From positions 4,096,001 through 4,160,000 of the forward strand of contig OZ242260.1 of the NCBI GenBank assembly GCA_965207065.1: 64,000 bases of DNA, written 5' to 3'. Positions 41,194-51,366 of the stretch are shown here, piece after piece; positions within the stretch are counted from its first letter, which is position 1; every line of letters starts with the position of its first letter. A program made the position numbers and the translations under genes. The notes beneath the pieces were generated by a model. It worked only from the letters and a program-made list of their open reading frames with translations, was not told the origin of the DNA and did not search any database. Origin of the DNA: a bacterium (GTDB taxonomy: Bacteria > UBA8248).

Positions 41194-42477
41194 GTGGGGA
41201 TAAGAAAATTGTCTGACGCGAAAAAGCACTTGTTCAGATTAACAACACTCTTCACTCTTCTCGCCTTGGGAATGGGCTTGTCCGGCTGTGCCGATTCCCT
41301 TCTTCCTAAGGTGAATGAAAGTTCCGTTAAAATCCTGAAAACCGCCATTGAAGTGGAATTTACCCAACTGACCAGAGAATTCGACCAACTCGACCAAAGT
41401 GGCGATCTGGAGCTTTGCGCTCCCCTGCGATTCGGAGTAGCGCGTTATGCCGTTTATCAGGCGGTAGAGGAGAAAAGAACCGCCTCTATGGCGCAACTGA
41501 CCCGATTCATCATGAGAGCGCGGGCGGCCATCAAGCGCGCAGAAGAGAAAATGCAAAAAAAACAATGTGTCGATAAGGATGGGGATGGACTCACTGACCT
41601 TACGGAATACCGGAAATATAAAACGAAACCTGATAATTTCGACACCGATGGGGATAACGTTTCCGATGGCGAGGAAATCCGCCGGTTTCGAACCAACCCC
41701 CTCAAAGCGGATACGGATGGCGATCTGCTCGACGATGGGGACGAGATATCACGCGGCTTGAGTCCGCTCCTCGCCGATAGCGATGGGGACGGATTCATCG
41801 ACGGCATCGAAATCGCCAATGGTTCGAACGCGCGCGATGCGTGTTCTCAGCCCCTGGATGCGCAAAATCTCGACCGTCTGCGCGAATGCGGCCCAAAACA
41901 GGTTCACGCCAAACCGGTTCAAGTTCAAACACCGCAAATACGAACTCCGTTGCCCGCACCCAAAGTAAAACAAAATTCGAAGAAGAAAAGGAAGCTCAAG
42001 GCGCAAAAACCGAAAACGAAGCCCTCCCCCAAGCCTCCCGGAGAACGAGCCTCAAACATCGAAAAAGTAAATTTCAAAGAGAGAAAAACAAAACCTACCC
42101 TCAATGGCAACGGCTCGCATCCTGAACGGAAAACTCAGGTGACTCGAAACCGCCAGGCCAGCGTGGACACTCCTGCAGACAAAGAGTCTCAAAATGAGAG
42201 CATAGATGCGAAAAGAAATCATCTTCCTGAGAAACCACAGAATGCAAATCTACACATCTTGAAGAAAGTGAATGCAGAGGGAGTACAATCAATAACAAAT
42301 CCCGAAGAATCACCGAGCCGCACACCCAATACGGCTTTACTCATGGAAAACCAAGGAAAAACGGATAATCCAGCTACGGTTCCGCCGACACCCGAACCTC
42401 CAAAGCCAGCGAAGAAAAAGAACTTTCCTTCTACGCATGAAGCCTTCCCCTCCACGATTTTTTTGAGGTTATGGTAG
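41194..42477 (+). CDS. Lipoprotein with Ca-binding DxDGDG (thrombospondin type 3-like) repeats and a long Pro/Lys-rich tail
   Basis: Lipobox LSGC; four D(T/S/K)DGD repeats. Confidence 0.8.
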   Translation: MGIRKLSDAKKHLFRLTTLFTLLALGMGLSGCADSLLPKVNESSVKILKTAIEVEFTQLTREFDQLDQSGDLELCAPLRFGVARYAVYQAVEEKRTASMAQLTRFIMRARAAIKRAEEKMQKKQCVDKDGDGLTDLTEYRKYKTKPDNFDTDGDNVSDGEEIRRFRTNPLKADTDGDLLDDGDEISRGLSPLLADSDGDGFIDGIEIANGSNARDACSQPLDAQNLDRLRECGPKQVHAKPVQVQTPQIRTPLPAPKVKQNSKKKRKLKAQKPKTKPSPKPPGERASNIEKVNFKERKTKPTLNGNGSHPERKTQVTRNRQASVDTPADKESQNESIDAKRNHLPEKPQNANLHILKKVNAEGVQSITNPEESPSRTPNTALLMENQGKTDNPATVPPTPEPPKPAKKKNFPSTHEAFPSTIFLRLW

Positions 42478-44326: not shown

Positions 44327-44365
44327 CCCAAAAAGAGGGGAGTCGTTTTCTCCCCTTTTTTTGGG
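44327..44365. terminator. Bidirectional intrinsic terminator
   Basis: CCCAAAAAGAGGGGAG ... CTCCCCTTTTTTTGGG between convergent genes. Confidence 0.85.
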
Positions 44366-44377
44366 ATGCAATGCCGT

Positions 44378-44842
44378 CTACGACCCGCCGCTGTTCTTAC
44401 TCCGGTTGGCGAATTCCTTAAAATACCCTCCGATGGAGGAAGCAGCCCAGTCAAAACCAATCTCCTGGGCTTTTTGCAGCACCTCGTCTCCGCTCAAGTC
44501 TTCTTCTTCGGCCAGATGAACAAGCGAGCAAATCCCGGCTCGCCCAACTCCTTTTCAGTGAACGTATACCGGACCGTCTTTCCTGGCCTCACGGAGCGCT
44601 TCATGGATTTGTCCCGATAAGGCATCATTCATGTTTGCGGCATTCACGGGAATATTCACAAAGTTCATTCCTAACTCTTGGGCCGCCTCTCGTTCCGCAT
44701 CGGGCGGCAACTCCGGTTCTTCCTCATCGGCGAAACGCAAATTGACGAGGGTTTTCATCCCATTATCCGCCAGATGCTCCAGATCCTTCCGTCCTGGCTG
44801 GCTTCCGAACACCAGATTTTCTGCCAACTCAAAGTAGTCCAT
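44378..44842 (-). CDS. DUF442/Blh-type PTP-fold sulfurtransferase/phosphatase-like protein, probable selenoprotein (H-U-K-G-V-G-R)
   Basis: In-frame TGA at 44555-44557 at the catalytic Cys position; frame stays open 58 more codons to TAG 44378, right before the terminator; hairpin 44522-44545. Confidence 0.85.
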
Positions 44843-44865
44843 ACCTTTTTCCCTCAACAATATAG

Positions 44866-45708
44866 TTAGATTCGTTGCACCAGTTCCCGACAACGAAGCA
44901 GGCAGGTCGCTTTTTCATCTTCTTCGTCGCGCTTATAAATTCCAAGCAGATTGTTGATCATTCTCTCCACGATACGGCGAGGAGGGGTTTCCTGTAAAAA
45001 CCGCATATCGAAATGATACCCGAGGCTCCGCACAATCGCCGCGCAATCCCCTACGCTCAAGCGCTTCCCCCTGTCGAATGGATCCAAAAATATGGGTTGC
45101 TCATCACCTTGGTATTTCACGATAAAATGTCCCGGCATTCCAACTCCGTGAAAGGGAAGCCCCAATCGAGCGGCAAGAATCAAATACAATGCGGAAAGCG
45201 ATATGGGGATTCCGAGCCTGCGCGCCAAAACGCGATTCATGAAACTGTTCTGCGCATCATAATAATTATCCCGCTCGCCATCGAAACGAAGCTCCCCGTG
45301 TAGATACTCCACGAATTCGTCGACAATGGCGTCGGCTTTAGTTATCCCCTTCAATCGCCTCCGCAAATGATTTTCCATGCTGAGTAGTTCGTCTTTTTTC
45401 ATCTCCATGTTTTCAAGCGGATGGCCGAAAGACGCCAGCAAGAAGCACGCGTCTTCCAAATTCACATCTTCCACCGAAGAAAGAGACCAATCCGAAAAAG
45501 CAGTTTCGATTTGCCCGTAATGGAATTCAATGAGCGATGGCGGCAGTATCACATGACCCGCATCACTTTTTTTCAGTATGCCCAGGAGTCTTTTTTGCTC
45601 ATCGGCCGAGAATTCCGAAACCTGGCGGTCCAAAGCTTCCGTCACGCCCGGTGAATCATCACCCAGCAAATGACAAATGGCCTCTAATTGCGAATCACTT
45701 AATGACAA
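44866..45708 (-). CDS. SirB1/transglutaminase-like (Transglut_core2) protein
   Basis: NYYDAQNSF, RRLGIPISL, GVGMPGHF, DPF. Confidence 0.88.
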   Translation of the reverse strand: MSLSDSQLEAICHLLGDDSPGVTEALDRQVSEFSADEQKRLLGILKKSDAGHVILPPSLIEFHYGQIETAFSDWSLSSVEDVNLEDACFLLASFGHPLENMEMKKDELLSMENHLRRRLKGITKADAIVDEFVEYLHGELRFDGERDNYYDAQNSFMNRVLARRLGIPISLSALYLILAARLGLPFHGVGMPGHFIVKYQGDEQPIFLDPFDRGKRLSVGDCAAIVRSLGYHFDMRFLQETPPRRIVERMINNLLGIYKRDEEDEKATCLLRCRELVQRI

Positions 45709-47850: not shown

Positions 47851-49206
47851 TTACTCACAGGCCTCGGTATACTTTAATATCGCCTGAGCGGCATTTTCCC
47901 CGCTTCTCACCGCACCCTCCACGGTGGCCGGCAGGCCCGTGCGAGTCCAGTCTCCAGCCAGAAAAAAACCTTCTATCGGAGTTTTCGTATCTATCCGGTA
48001 CCTTTGCTCCGCGACTCCGTTCCCCCAGGTGGCCGCACGCTCCCGCACCACCAAAACATCCCGAATGGGGTTAAGGGGAATCATGCGTTTCAGGCAATCA
48101 CGTGCAGACGACTCGATGGTCGACCGTTCTGCGGATGCGATGGAATCCTCCGCTCCGGCCAACAGACACACCAGATTCTTCACGTCTACTCCACTTGCCT
48201 CCGGACGAAACAGCCAGTCCCACTCCTCATTAACAATCGCTTCGAAAGGAGGCCCCTCATCCGGTTCTTCAAGCCAGCAATATGCGCTGGCAATAGGCCC
48301 CGGGCGCAACTTTCCCAGATTCGAAAAAGGCGCCCGCTCACCGAGTTCTCCACCCAGCAGTCTGCCAAGGGCGTCGGGCGGCACAGCGGAAATGACTGCG
48401 GCAGCACCCAAGGTCTCGCGCTCTTTCAAAATCACACCTTTGATTGTCGAATCATGGACTTCAAGACCGACTGCGGACTGCTGAAGCCTCACTTCTCCAC
48501 CGAGTTGACGGATGCGTTGAGCCGCTCTGTTCGCCCACATAGTACCCAATGCCTTCATCGGGACTCCCAGGGCGGCTCCTTTCGGCCCATCGGAGAAGGC
48601 TTCCCGAATCACTGCCTTGAACAATGCCGCACTTCCCTCCTCCAATGGCAAGTTCAACACCGCGCGCGCAAACGGCTCCCAAAACCAGCGCACCGTTTCA
48701 TCCTTCTGGCCCAGTCGCCCCAGCATTTCACTCATGGATTCATTCGGGTATTCATCATTCGAATTGGAAATAATCTTTGACAGACCTATCAGAAGATTCA
48801 ATTTCGCCCATAACCGGGGGCCTCGCCATTTGAGCAAGCCCCGGAGTTGCGCCAAAACTCCTCCATCCTCCGGAAATGACAATTGCGTCCGTCTGGGTGA
48901 CTCCTCTTCCCGAATCCGGTAACTCACCTCCAGAGAGGGTGAGAACAAAACATCATCTACGGCGCCCACCCTCTCCAGCAATGAGCGCAGCGCCGGGTTG
49001 GCTGCCATGAACAAATGCGGGCCCCAGTCCAACTCCAGGCCCGTGGATGAGTGCATGAAACTGCGTGCCCGGCCACCGAGAAGCTTCCCCGCCTCGAGCA
49101 CGATGACTTTGACCCCCGACTCGGCAAGACGCAAGGCGGCGGACAGGCCCGCTGCTCCGGCTCCGATGATGATAACCGGCCTCTCGAATCCGCCAAGCTC
49201 AGTCAT
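47851..49206 (-). CDS. hpnE: Hydroxysqualene dehydroxylase (HpnE-like FAD enzyme)
   Basis: GAGAAG, LGGRARSF, ERAAT, LAGDWTRTGLPATVEGAVRSG; adjacent to hpnCD. Confidence 0.88.
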   Translation of the reverse strand: MTELGGFERPVIIIGAGAAGLSAALRLAESGVKVIVLEAGKLLGGRARSFMHSSTGLELDWGPHLFMAANPALRSLLERVGAVDDVLFSPSLEVSYRIREEESPRRTQLSFPEDGGVLAQLRGLLKWRGPRLWAKLNLLIGLSKIISNSNDEYPNESMSEMLGRLGQKDETVRWFWEPFARAVLNLPLEEGSAALFKAVIREAFSDGPKGAALGVPMKALGTMWANRAAQRIRQLGGEVRLQQSAVGLEVHDSTIKGVILKERETLGAAAVISAVPPDALGRLLGGELGERAPFSNLGKLRPGPIASAYCWLEEPDEGPPFEAIVNEEWDWLFRPEASGVDVKNLVCLLAGAEDSIASAERSTIESSARDCLKRMIPLNPIRDVLVVRERAATWGNGVAEQRYRIDTKTPIEGFFLAGDWTRTGLPATVEGAVRSGENAAQAILKYTEACE

Positions 49207-51366
49207 TTACGCTTCCAGGAAACAGCGAAGCGCTTCTAGTAGTTTTTCCCTGGACTTCAAAGAGGGGCGATAATGCATGTGCCGAAAATGATTCTTCTCC
49301 ATCTCACTCAGAAGTCTCCGATAAATCCGGCCCATGATTCTGGCGGGAAGAAGATTCTCTTTTTTCTCATGGCGCAAGGCTTCATTCGCCCGCTCATAAT
49401 ATATACGCGCCTGATGCGCCAAGAACCGAAGAAGGCTCAAAACCTGAGAAGTATCATTTTTGTCTTTCAAATCGGAGACGGATACTCCATATTTCTCCAT
49501 TTCACTTCTCGGAATATAAATACGCCCCTCCTCGGCATCTTCCCAAACATCTCGCAAAATGTTCGTCAACTGCAGCGCTCGTCCCAAACAAACAGCGTAT
49601 TCTTTCGCAAATTCCGATTTCGCACCAAAAATTCCCAGGCACGCCAGCCCTACTGCGGATGCCACTTTGTCACAATATTTTTCAAGGTCCGAGAAATTTT
49701 CAAATCTGCTTTCTTCCAAATCCATCGCCACGCCATCACAAATCGCCCGAAAATGCTCCGGCGGCAAGTCGAATTTCCGCGACGCCCAAGAGAGTTCCCC
49801 GATTATCGGGTGGGATGGACTTTCCTCGCCAAACCGATCCAGCGCCTCTTTCCATTCGGCCAGCGAGGTTTTTTTGCCGGATATCTCGCCCGGTTCATCG
49901 GCGATGTCATCGGCCATGCGGCAATATGCGTAAACTGCTGTAATGGCGCGCCTTTTCTCCGCAGGTAGGCTGAAAAAAGACAGATAAAAATTCGACCGGC
50001 TCGCCCGAATGAACCAGCGGCAGTAAGCGCGGTTCAATGTTTCTTCTGCCTGCCGATCCACATTGGATTCGAGTCGATAGACCGGGCGAAACGCAGCAAG
50101 CAGTGACTTGGCCTTATCCCGGCCATTCAAAAGCGGCGAGCCTGCGCAAACATTCCAATTCTCACGGGAAACCGAGTCCAGCGCCGCCACGCCGCCACGC
50201 CAAATCGCACGAAGTTCACGGCCCAATGCGCCGCGGGTCCGGTACAAAAGGGGCAGGCCTTGCTTGAAGAGGTGCTTTGTCCTCTTTATCTGAAAGACCA
50301 GGAACGCTCGCAGTTGAGGCGTCGCTACGTCCGCGATCAAATCTTCTTCCGAGACGGCGAACCGTTTCATCTCATCCTGCGGCATGTAGACGATGCCGCG
50401 TTCGGCATCTTCTTTCACGTCTTGTAAGTGATTCGCAATCTGCAATGCCGTGCAGATGGCATCCGACGCGCGAAAGGCCTCGTCATCACGTATCCCGTGC
50501 AGCATGAGAACGATTCTTCCGACAGGATCCGCCGATCGGCGGCAATAATCGAGCAAGGCTTCATAGTTCGGGTACCGGAGAACCGTGACGTCTTGTTTGA
50601 ACGCCGAAAGCAGATCCAGAAAAGGTTTTAAGGGCAATCCGAATTGTTGAATCGTGTGGGAGAGCGCTATGAAAACATCTGTTTCAGCGACACCCTTCTC
50701 AGCCAATAACAGCTTCTCTTCCCATACATCCAGGCGGGCAAGGCGCTCATCAATGGGCCTTGTCGTATCCGCGATATCATCGGCGCCTCTGGCGAATGCG
50801 TAGACCGCAGCCACGTGCGGCCTTATCTTCTTCGGCAGCAACTTCGAGGCGACGGGAAAATTCTCGTAGTGGCCGACTACGATTTTCATGCACGTATCAT
50901 AAGCGGCGCTTAAATCAGCCTCAGAACTATTCTTAACCTCTTTGCCTGAACCCTTTATTCCCTCGCCATTCATGAGAGATTCTATCAACTGCGCATCCGC
51001 CGGCAGGAATTCAAAATCCCCCAATGAGGCAGGATTCACCCATTCATGTCCCGCCACTCCCAAATTCTTCGCCACTCCCCTTTCCCATTCGCAACCATAA
51101 AAGCGAAGATGAACATCTCTATCGGGATAACGGTGGCGGGTCTCCCAATGAAGACTGCCAACGCGCACTTCGATGCCCAGTTCCTCGCGAATCTCCCGTT
51201 GCAAGGCTTCACAGGGTTCCTCACCATCTTCTATTTTACCGCCGGGAAACTCCCAAAAACCCGGCATGTGACCGCCCGCCGGACGCTGACAGATGAGAAT
51301 ACGCCCCTCGTTCCAGACAATACCGGCGACGACGCTTAGCTCTGAAGCGGCAGCTTCGCTCTTCAT
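49207..51366 (-). CDS. Nudix (MutT-like)-HpnC-HpnD triple fusion squalene synthase
   Basis: Nudix box GGKIEDGEEPCEALQREIREELG; HpnC HYENFPVAS/ADDIAD; HpnD SNFYLSF/CRMADDIAD/LQLTNILRD. Confidence 0.88.
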   Translation of the reverse strand: MKSEAAASELSVVAGIVWNEGRILICQRPAGGHMPGFWEFPGGKIEDGEEPCEALQREIREELGIEVRVGSLHWETRHRYPDRDVHLRFYGCEWERGVAKNLGVAGHEWVNPASLGDFEFLPADAQLIESLMNGEGIKGSGKEVKNSSEADLSAAYDTCMKIVVGHYENFPVASKLLPKKIRPHVAAVYAFARGADDIADTTRPIDERLARLDVWEEKLLLAEKGVAETDVFIALSHTIQQFGLPLKPFLDLLSAFKQDVTVLRYPNYEALLDYCRRSADPVGRIVLMLHGIRDDEAFRASDAICTALQIANHLQDVKEDAERGIVYMPQDEMKRFAVSEEDLIADVATPQLRAFLVFQIKRTKHLFKQGLPLLYRTRGALGRELRAIWRGGVAALDSVSRENWNVCAGSPLLNGRDKAKSLLAAFRPVYRLESNVDRQAEETLNRAYCRWFIRASRSNFYLSFFSLPAEKRRAITAVYAYCRMADDIADEPGEISGKKTSLAEWKEALDRFGEESPSHPIIGELSWASRKFDLPPEHFRAICDGVAMDLEESRFENFSDLEKYCDKVASAVGLACLGIFGAKSEFAKEYAVCLGRALQLTNILRDVWEDAEEGRIYIPRSEMEKYGVSVSDLKDKNDTSQVLSLLRFLAHQARIYYERANEALRHEKKENLLPARIMGRIYRRLLSEMEKNHFRHMHYRPSLKSREKLLEALRCFLEA

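Follow-up and report, generated by a model that had tools for sequence, protein, structure and literature searches.

On the minus strand of a 64,000-nucleotide stretch of contig OZ242260.1 (assembly GCA_965207065.1, positions 4,096,001 to 4,160,000; this whole stretch is referred to as the window, and positions are counted from its first letter) lies a gene at 44842-44378 that is very probably a real, conserved selenoprotein gene, with an in-frame TGA at the position of a catalytic cysteine. Starting with the ATG at 44842, the frame runs MDYFELAENLVFGSQPGRKD...GPVYVH, reaches the TGA as codon 96 and then continues with KGVGRAGICSLVHLAEEE...KAQEIGFDW..., with 58 codons following the TGA (44557-44555) up to a TAG at 44380-44378. 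The list of open reading frames (ORFs) made with translation table 11 holds an ORF at 44555..44893 that ends at the TGA. The ATG at 44842 is taken to be the true start, since the preceding gene stops at 44866, a GAGGG motif (which presumably acts as the ribosome-binding site) lies 8 nt 5' of it and M1 is nearly invariant in relatives. On the other side, a terminator-like hairpin (44336-44356) starts approximately 21 nt past the TAG. A preliminary description of the locus had already read the frame as open past ...GPVYVH-TGA for 58 codons to the TAG, had placed a bidirectional terminator behind it and had pointed to an H-U-x4-R loop (U being selenocysteine, Sec). The translation bears out both the frame and the loop, the latter as U-K-G-V-G-R, and the terminator hairpin is found on both strands.

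The TGA is retained throughout the family. Matches to the protein are present in 33 of 61 related genomes, and a profile search (E <= 1e-10) of a phylum set of 51 genomes gave 59 matches in 35 of them, 57 being full-length and 2 being fragments. All 57 full-length matches carry the in-frame TGA, down to 37% identity, and a version with a Cys codon (TGC or TGT) was not found among them, as had been proposed for a genuine Sec codon in the preliminary description. In the 40 family genes that were extracted for the alignment, codon and stem analyses, the TGA occupies one and the same column of a motif, H-U-x3-G-R-A-G-[IVL]-C-S-L, that is present in every one of them. The family consists of two paralog groups, both TGA-bearing, and most genomes of the genus have two paralogs: group A is made up of the orthologs that share the position of the window gene (64-88% identical within the genus), and group B is approximately 44% identical, with its copy in this genome at G000:C1:1354407-1354850. 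The part after the TGA is constrained as protein and under purifying selection, the ratio of nonsynonymous to synonymous substitution (dN/dS) in group A (21 genes) being 0.19 for codons 108-131 compared to 0.12 for codons 2-95, and in group B (9 genes) 0.19 and 0.20, respectively.

That the TGA is simply a true stop giving a 95-residue product, or else a nonsense mutation in a pseudogene or a sequencing error, is what translation table 11 and the databases would suggest, all 27 database homologs found being fragments of at most 95 aa, of which 26 stop at the TGA and hence lack the active site. Such an explanation is very improbable, however, given the conservation of the TGA in distant relatives and the low dN/dS downstream of it, and a 95-residue product would be without the whole catalytic loop. 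Moreover, the same TGA is retained in an independent DNA run from another study and in RNA-library contigs from two studies that bridge it (X15 and X16/X17, with coverage of 44365-44607 only; X16 and X17 are of equal size and possibly one data set). These contigs represent a near-identical strain and differ nearby only in the spacer at 44548-44549 (a synonymous change of GGA to GGC, and GTT to ATT), leaving the hairpin described below unchanged.

Some irregular sequences were encountered in the family. In the ortholog at locus L042 (G010:C5:285631-286089), a second TGA replaces the TGG of Trp132, a residue that is invariant in the others. This could reflect a truncation, strain variation or faulty assembly; the metagenome-assembled genome concerned has 9% contamination. 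A partial second copy at G009:C10:131444-131719 (residues 3-101) is broken by a TAA and may be a decayed paralog, while the group-A-like database protein P0027 (94 aa) is without approximately residues 57-113, including Sec and the P-loop, so that the C-terminal helix follows directly on its N-terminal third; this could be a variant with a deletion or an artefact of metagenome assembly.

The genome holds a complete Sec machinery, the search for which had likewise been named at the outset: selA (579 bits), selB (386), selD (334.5) and tRNA-Sec (75.9) all score above their curated cut-offs, and selA and selB are adjacent. Of the 51 genomes in the phylum set, 49 have selA; the other two are 79% and 67% complete. 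The organism is rich in selenoproteins. Its selD (G000:C1:543537-544499, minus strand; locus L011) has an in-frame TGA of its own (G-G-U-G-S-K) followed by a hairpin, i.e. it encodes a selenoprotein-type SelD, and 7 of the 14 AhpC/TSA and 2 of the 12 rhodanese-domain matches in the genome also have one in-frame TGA and then a hairpin. According to the available part of PMC13326102, BSepDB places three bacteria labelled Nitrospinota/Nitrospinaceae/Nitrospinae, and assigned to UBA8248, within the ten most selenoprotein-rich bacteria, with 48-54 genes each; the present genome presumably belongs to this same UBA8248 group. A different way of reading through the TGA would be its translation as another amino acid (Trp, Cys or Gly), via a reassigned code or near-cognate suppression, and the frame is indeed open under any sense reading of the codon. 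The chances of this are nevertheless minute: TGA is used as a real stop in 8 of the 40 family genes, from which it follows that it is not reassigned in the lineage, and besides the complete machinery there is a hairpin at the position of a selenocysteine insertion sequence (SECIS), while the homologs align their catalytic Cys with the TGA, which is the usual Sec/Cys pairing.

Bacterial SECIS elements are stem-loops shortly 3' of the UGA with a G in the apical loop, and the hairpin in the window gene corresponds to that definition, with a conserved 7-bp stem (44544-44523) that starts 10 nt after the UGA and the loop CGGGAUUU. In this genome only, an extra G-U pair (44545/44522) is present, and the full stem, GGGCGAGC/GCTCGCTT with the loop CGGGATTT (also written GGGCGAGC/GCUCGCUU with the loop CGGGAUUU), starts 9 nt after the UGA. 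The preliminary description had the stem begin at 9 nt, which holds for this genome; it is the inner 7 bp, starting at 10 nt, that are conserved across relatives. The 40 sequences share GGCG(A/G)GC-CGGGAUUU-GCUCGCU almost letter for letter, even across paralogs with 44% protein identity. All 245 cells (7 pairs in 35 distinct rows) are standard pairs, and the three stem pairs that vary do so on one side only, each with its pairing kept (A-U/G-U, G-C/G-U and G-U/A-U). Synonymous sites are frozen in this region: of 35 conserved degenerate codon columns, only those of codons 100, 102, 103, 105 and 106 (GGG, GCC, GGG, UGC and UCG) have a codon entropy of zero, codon 101 is CGA in 21 genes and CGG in 19, either of which pairs with the U across the stem, and the remaining 29 columns have entropies of 0.29-2.36 bits. 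In line with this, the synonymous divergence (dS) is 0.21 in codons 100-107, compared to 0.86-1.16 in the flanks. The conserved hairpin that had been asked of relatives at the outset is therefore found, both in its pairing and in its synonymous sites.

With -11.3 kcal/mol, the 24-nt hairpin is equalled or exceeded in stability by 1.1% of 18,280 24-nt windows and by 0.9% of 1,981 TGA-anchored windows. Its 10-nt spacer falls within the geometry of the 10 other UGA genes of this genome (selD, the 7 AhpC/TSA (Prx-like) genes and the 2 rhodanese genes), in which GC-rich hairpins follow the UGA at a distance of 5-16 nt, with stabilities of -4.1 to -14.0 kcal/mol and often a GG in the loop. A Sec formate dehydrogenase with an in-frame stop, sought in this genome as a further SECIS comparison, was not found.

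Several points weigh against, or fail to bear out, the hairpin as a SECIS element and the decoding of the UGA. No two-sided compensatory change occurs in the stem among the 35 distinct rows, because of which the shuffle control (500/500) is uninformative, and coding constraint on R-A-G-x-C-S-L alone could explain part of the nucleotide conservation. The 76-nt context around the TGA is not unusually stable (folding z = -0.21), and a search with Rfam at gathering thresholds gave no RNA family at the hairpin and only a tRNA in the window. Finally, the RNA-library contigs are no proof that the gene is transcribed, let alone translated. The decisive evidence is that of the comparative data.

In the mechanism proposed here, codon 96 would be decoded as selenocysteine by the SelA/SelB/SelD/tRNA-Sec system of the organism, recruited by the hairpin starting 10 nt downstream of the UGA, which would itself consist of codons for the active-site loop and for the helix after it (G100-L107). 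Sec would then take the place of the catalytic Cys, at the foot of a short anion-binding loop (U-x4-R). The actual incorporation of selenium, as well as the substrate and the partner proteins discussed below, are what we infer.

Judging by profile matches and a structure model, the protein has the protein tyrosine phosphatase/dual-specificity phosphatase (PTP/DSP) fold of the DUF442/TIGR01244 group. The read-through product matches the Pfam families PF22741, PF22785, PF22784 and PF04273 (PTP-NADK, Tc-R-P, PTP-SAK and BLH_phosphatase, the last being DUF442), all above their cut-offs; PF04273 scores 31.2 bits against a gathering cut-off of 26.1 bits, and its three sister PTP families score higher. 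The NCBIfam matches cross the TGA, Blh over residues 6-135 and TIGR01244 over residues 5-132. The match to Blh (NF040641; 63.8 bits against a cut-off of 625) is to its sulfur-transferase part and covers only profile positions 3-130 of 423, and there is no dioxygenase domain. No NCBIfam model dedicated to such a protein gave a match, nor did the rhodanese domain PF00581 at E <= 0.1. A signal peptide is not apparent from the protein sequence. In Foldseek, the AlphaFold2 model (pLDDT 92.3, pTM 0.88) finds the DUF442 structures 2f46 and 3gxh best, followed by TpbA, Tk-PTP and dual-specificity phosphatases, and a sequence-profile search of the PDB agrees with this, aligning U96 to the catalytic Cys of 2f46, 3gxg and TpbA and the U-K-G-V-G-R loop with C-R-T-G-T-R of 2f46.

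Homologs with Cys surfaced only in an exhaustive profile search (7,365 proteins at E <= 1e-3), a word-based search having returned nothing but fragments of at most 95 aa. For a census of the Sec column, 161 domains from 148 of the 150 best proteins were used, the two left out being Sec-family fragments. The column holds Cys in 146 of the 157 domains that cover it, Ser in 8, Asp in 2 and Gly in 1; it is empty in the other 4 domains, of which 3 are fragments of 94-100 aa that end in ...VH just before it. Together with the solved DUF442/PTP structures, this gives the alignment of Cys to the TGA that the preliminary description had anticipated. Nearly all homolog domains have a C-x4-R loop, and three have the classical C-x5-R. 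A quick maximum-likelihood tree was built from the 40 Sec forms and from 125 Cys-type domains with a length of 125 aa or more (165 rows in all), shorter and second domains being excluded. The Sec forms cluster in it with modest support, 2 changes of the Sec label are required, and P0029, a Cys form, falls within the Sec forms (SH-aLRT 89); a single origin of the Sec forms is compatible with this tree. P0101, a divergent 94-aa fragment ending in ...VFVH and a possible Sec form from outside this lineage, has Sec forms as its best blastp matches (46-47% identity), and a metagenome scan for it gave only distant Cys-type relatives (TGC), with 42% and 32% identity.

The features of the two loci are collected in Table 1. 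In paralog A, the order is SirB1-like gene, Sec gene and convergent ilvD. The SirB1-like neighbour is present in all 30 paralog-A loci checked (L025-L047, L050-L054, L061 and L062) and ilvD also in 29 of them (within the DNA covered), and the order is kept even in genera where the protein is only ~40% identical. With a gap of 23 nt, the SirB1-like gene and the Sec gene are probably co-transcribed. Paralog B follows, on the same strand and after 22 nt, an OsmC-like selenoprotein gene that table 11 splits into two ORFs; both its in-frame stop and the tandem with paralog B recur in 28 loci, a number that counts some places twice. Minus-strand ORFs that appeared as neighbours of paralog B were rejected as antisense artefacts of the OsmC-like gene. 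Elsewhere in the window, a 719-aa ORF at 49207-51366 (minus strand) combines a NUDIX domain with two squalene/phytoene-synthase stretches and has a flavin amine-oxidoreductase gene directly downstream on the same strand (47851-49206), and a 427-aa ORF at 41194-42477 (plus strand) has no Pfam match and weak NCBIfam matches to calcium-binding repeat proteins (CglD, MtsD, lanmodulin).

Table 1. Features of the selenoprotein gene in the window and of the gene preceding paralog B
Feature	Position	Strand	Details and basis
Sec-protein coding sequence, 154 residues	44842-44378	minus	ATG 44842, Sec codon 96, TAG 44380-44378; translation
In-frame TGA (U96), catalytic-Cys position of the H-U-K-G-V-G-R (U-x4-R) loop	44557-44555	minus	alignments
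SECIS-like hairpin, stem GGCGAGC/GCUCGCU (7 bp), loop CGGGAUUU	44523..44544	minus	codons 100-107 (G-R-A-G-I-C-S-L)
GAGGG, ribosome-binding-site-like motif	44851..44855	minus	8 nt 5' of the ATG, within the 23-nt intergenic gap; read from sequence
Terminator-like hairpin, bidirectional, common to the Sec gene and convergent ilvD	44336..44356	both	pattern scan
Upstream neighbour, 280 aa, transglutaminase-like (Transglut_core2, SirB1-like)	44866..45708	minus	PF13369 8.8e-42; weak NCBIfam SirB1 match
OsmC-like selenoprotein gene (U-L-L-T)	L055:4410-4985, TGA L055:4674-4676 (= G000:C1 ~1353809-1354384)	plus	Pfam OsmC 2e-12 when read through

As to function, the protein has the PTP-like fold in common with the Cys-type DUF442/PF04273/TIGR01244 sulfur transferases (the N-terminal Blh domain of Xylella and Agrobacterium, and the DUF442 domain of the SQR of Cupriavidus pinatubonensis), in which the nucleophile likewise stands at the end of a beta-strand and is followed by an x4-R loop, and Blh and TIGR01244 are its best NCBIfam matches. 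It differs from them in that it has Sec, is a free-standing protein of 154 residues, does not reach the cut-offs of TIGR01244 and Blh, has no adjacent SQR or persulfide dioxygenase gene and has a clade-specific Cys105-Ser106. The DUF442 domain of Blh moves sulfane sulfur from thiosulfate to cyanide or glutathione, as stated in the available part of PMC5823870, and that of SQR is a rhodanese acting via Cys94 (PMC9163753, also in part). Among the close Cys homologs of the window protein, P0031 is fused to two rhodanese domains and P0036 to a metallo-beta-lactamase and two rhodanese domains, and two Sec-rhodaneses of this genome have loops of a similar kind, U-x-x-G-x-R-A (U-Q-T-G-Y-R-A and U-R-L-S-H-R-A, compared to U-K-G-V-G-R-A in the window protein). 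In the rhodanese-like selenoproteins (PF00581 forms 1-5 in Table 1 of PMC13188914) Sec is likewise found at the position of the loop that carries the persulfide, but their fold is unrelated, and the resemblance is functional and convergent and does not make the window protein a member of that family. Because of the DUF442 activity, the rhodanese-fused Cys homologs and the Sec-rhodaneses with similar loops, a sulfane-sulfur transferase is favoured here, with transfer via a Se-S intermediate; by analogy with the Cys-type DUF442 domains, we would put the odds of this function at about even. The selenolate would attack a sulfane sulfur (of thiosulfate, a persulfide or a polysulfide), upon which an enzyme Se-S intermediate would form and the sulfur would be passed to a thiol acceptor.

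A number of observations argue against sulfur transfer. The best Pfam score is that of PTP-NADK (39.9 bits), above the 31.2 bits of BLH_phosphatase, and with 47.1 bits the protein stays below the 85.85-bit cut-off of TIGR01244, i.e. it is related to the curated family but outside it. No SQR, persulfide dioxygenase or sulfite exporter was found beside either paralog, and a metallo-beta-lactamase gene near paralog B, considered as a persulfide dioxygenase, was rejected as being flavodiiron/ODP-like. In addition, NMA1982 of Neisseria meningitidis (2f46), which is the closest relative with a solved structure and the best match both by sequence (E = 1e-9) and by Foldseek (E = 8.7e-8) and has a C-x4-R loop of the same length, is described in the available part of PMC10716126 as a secreted weak tyrosine phosphatase with a helper acid, D71, and with a phosphatase activity on DiFMUP that depends on C95 and R100 (kcat 4.4e-5 per s).

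Together with the PTP/DSP fold and the PTP-type top Pfam matches, NMA1982 thus provides the basis for the view that the protein is a real selenoprotein, acting however as a phosphatase, or as a hydrolase or reductase of some other oxyanion (e.g. an arsenate reductase), by way of a Se-P or Se-As intermediate. We consider this unlikely. The kcat of NMA1982 is at least 100-fold below those of human PTPs (same part of PMC10716126) and is read as a side activity. Its Cys corresponds to Sec here and its D71, the mutation of which costs only 50% of the catalytic efficiency according to that source, to Asn70 (by residue count on the PDB-profile alignment), at 23% identity in the structural alignment; in an alignment of 20 sequences, neither Asp nor Glu is invariant at any of residues 66-75, some members having Glu or Asp at 69 or 70. 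The classical PTP/DSP enzymes (TpbA, Tk-PTP and VHR) have the same overall fold (TM 0.7-0.76) and H-C...R-[AST]-G at the P-loop, but theirs is a C-x5-R loop with a conserved general-acid Asp, whereas the loop here is x4, shorter by one residue, and no acid conserved throughout was found. Furthermore, the other DUF442 domains discussed above are shown to be sulfur transferases, and it is to rhodanese and metallo-beta-lactamase domains that the related Cys forms are fused.

The invariant Cys105 raises a further option, namely that the real selenoprotein is a selenol/thiol redox protein with a Sec96-Cys105 selenenylsulfide, for instance in a peroxide or disulfide relay with the OsmC-like selenoprotein (in the case of paralog B). 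Cys105 is present in all 40 genes of the Sec clade, while only 6 of the 142 homolog domains with a residue in that column have Cys (mostly it is Phe, Leu or Met), the tandem of paralog B with the OsmC-like U-x-x-T gene is widely kept, and known selenoproteins are mostly redox proteins (PMC13188914, in the part available). In the stem, however, the codons of Cys105 (UGC) and Ser106 (UCG) complement the GC of Ala102 and the CGR of Arg101, so that the residues may be dictated by the RNA, and the copy in the window (paralog A) is not adjacent to an OsmC gene. It seems, then, that either Cys105-Ser106 would have been selected for the RNA structure or Cys105 would be the resolving Cys of a selenenylsulfide, and a redox role for the protein as a whole is to be regarded as improbable.

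Taken as a whole, the explanation that best accounts for the observations, with a probability of roughly 0.78, is that of a genuine 154-residue selenoprotein with a PTP/DUF442 fold, in which UGA 96 is decoded via a SECIS element and which most likely serves sulfane-sulfur transfer. The conserved recoded TGA, the translation-level constraint downstream of it, the conserved hairpin, the Sec machinery, the fold and the Cys homologs are directly supported.

The preliminary description did not recall the fold from among the commonly listed bacterial selenoprotein families, and it is indeed absent from the 119 families of a 2026 review (PMC13188914), neither Table 1 nor the text of which has a PTP-fold, DUF442, PF04273 or TIGR01244 entry. 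A full-text literature search gave no paper on selenoprotein plus DUF442 or on selenocysteine plus TIGR01244, and the available part of the BSepDB supplement, a species table only and as such weak evidence, has no entry for TIGR01244, PF04273, a phosphatase or a sulfur transferase. It is thus an uncatalogued selenoprotein family, on a known fold and with the ordinary bacterial decoding mechanism. The only name on the 27 truncated database homologs is 'sulfur transferase domain-containing protein'. Their truncation is a systematic annotation error: homology catalogues that start from known families would miss the family.

The interest of the family lies with specialists in selenoproteins and in the PTP fold. 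It adds the PTP/DUF442 fold to those of the known bacterial selenoproteins, and the same 22 nt that encode the catalytic Arg also form the SECIS stem, which makes it a clean case of dual constraint on RNA and protein. A more far-reaching version, which we think has little chance of being correct, would make the protein the first selenoenzyme in the cysteine-phosphatase superfamily that directs a P-loop selenolate at an oxyanion rather than at sulfane sulfur (as a phosphatase, an arsenate reductase or an enzyme acting on a selenium oxyanion, with Se-P, Se-As or Se-Se intermediates), with the SECIS element having rewritten Cys105-Ser106; if true, the embedded SECIS would be an RNA element that shapes a catalytic pocket, Cys105-Ser106 being located behind the active site. 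For the family as read here, a selenolate in a phosphatase-type anion-binding loop would amount to a natural experiment on P-loop nucleophilicity, resistance to over-oxidation and Se-S intermediates. As for the organism, its lineage, which is labelled Nitrospinota and is rich in Sec, has two conserved paralogs, and their SirB1-like and OsmC-like partners offer handles on the role of the protein.

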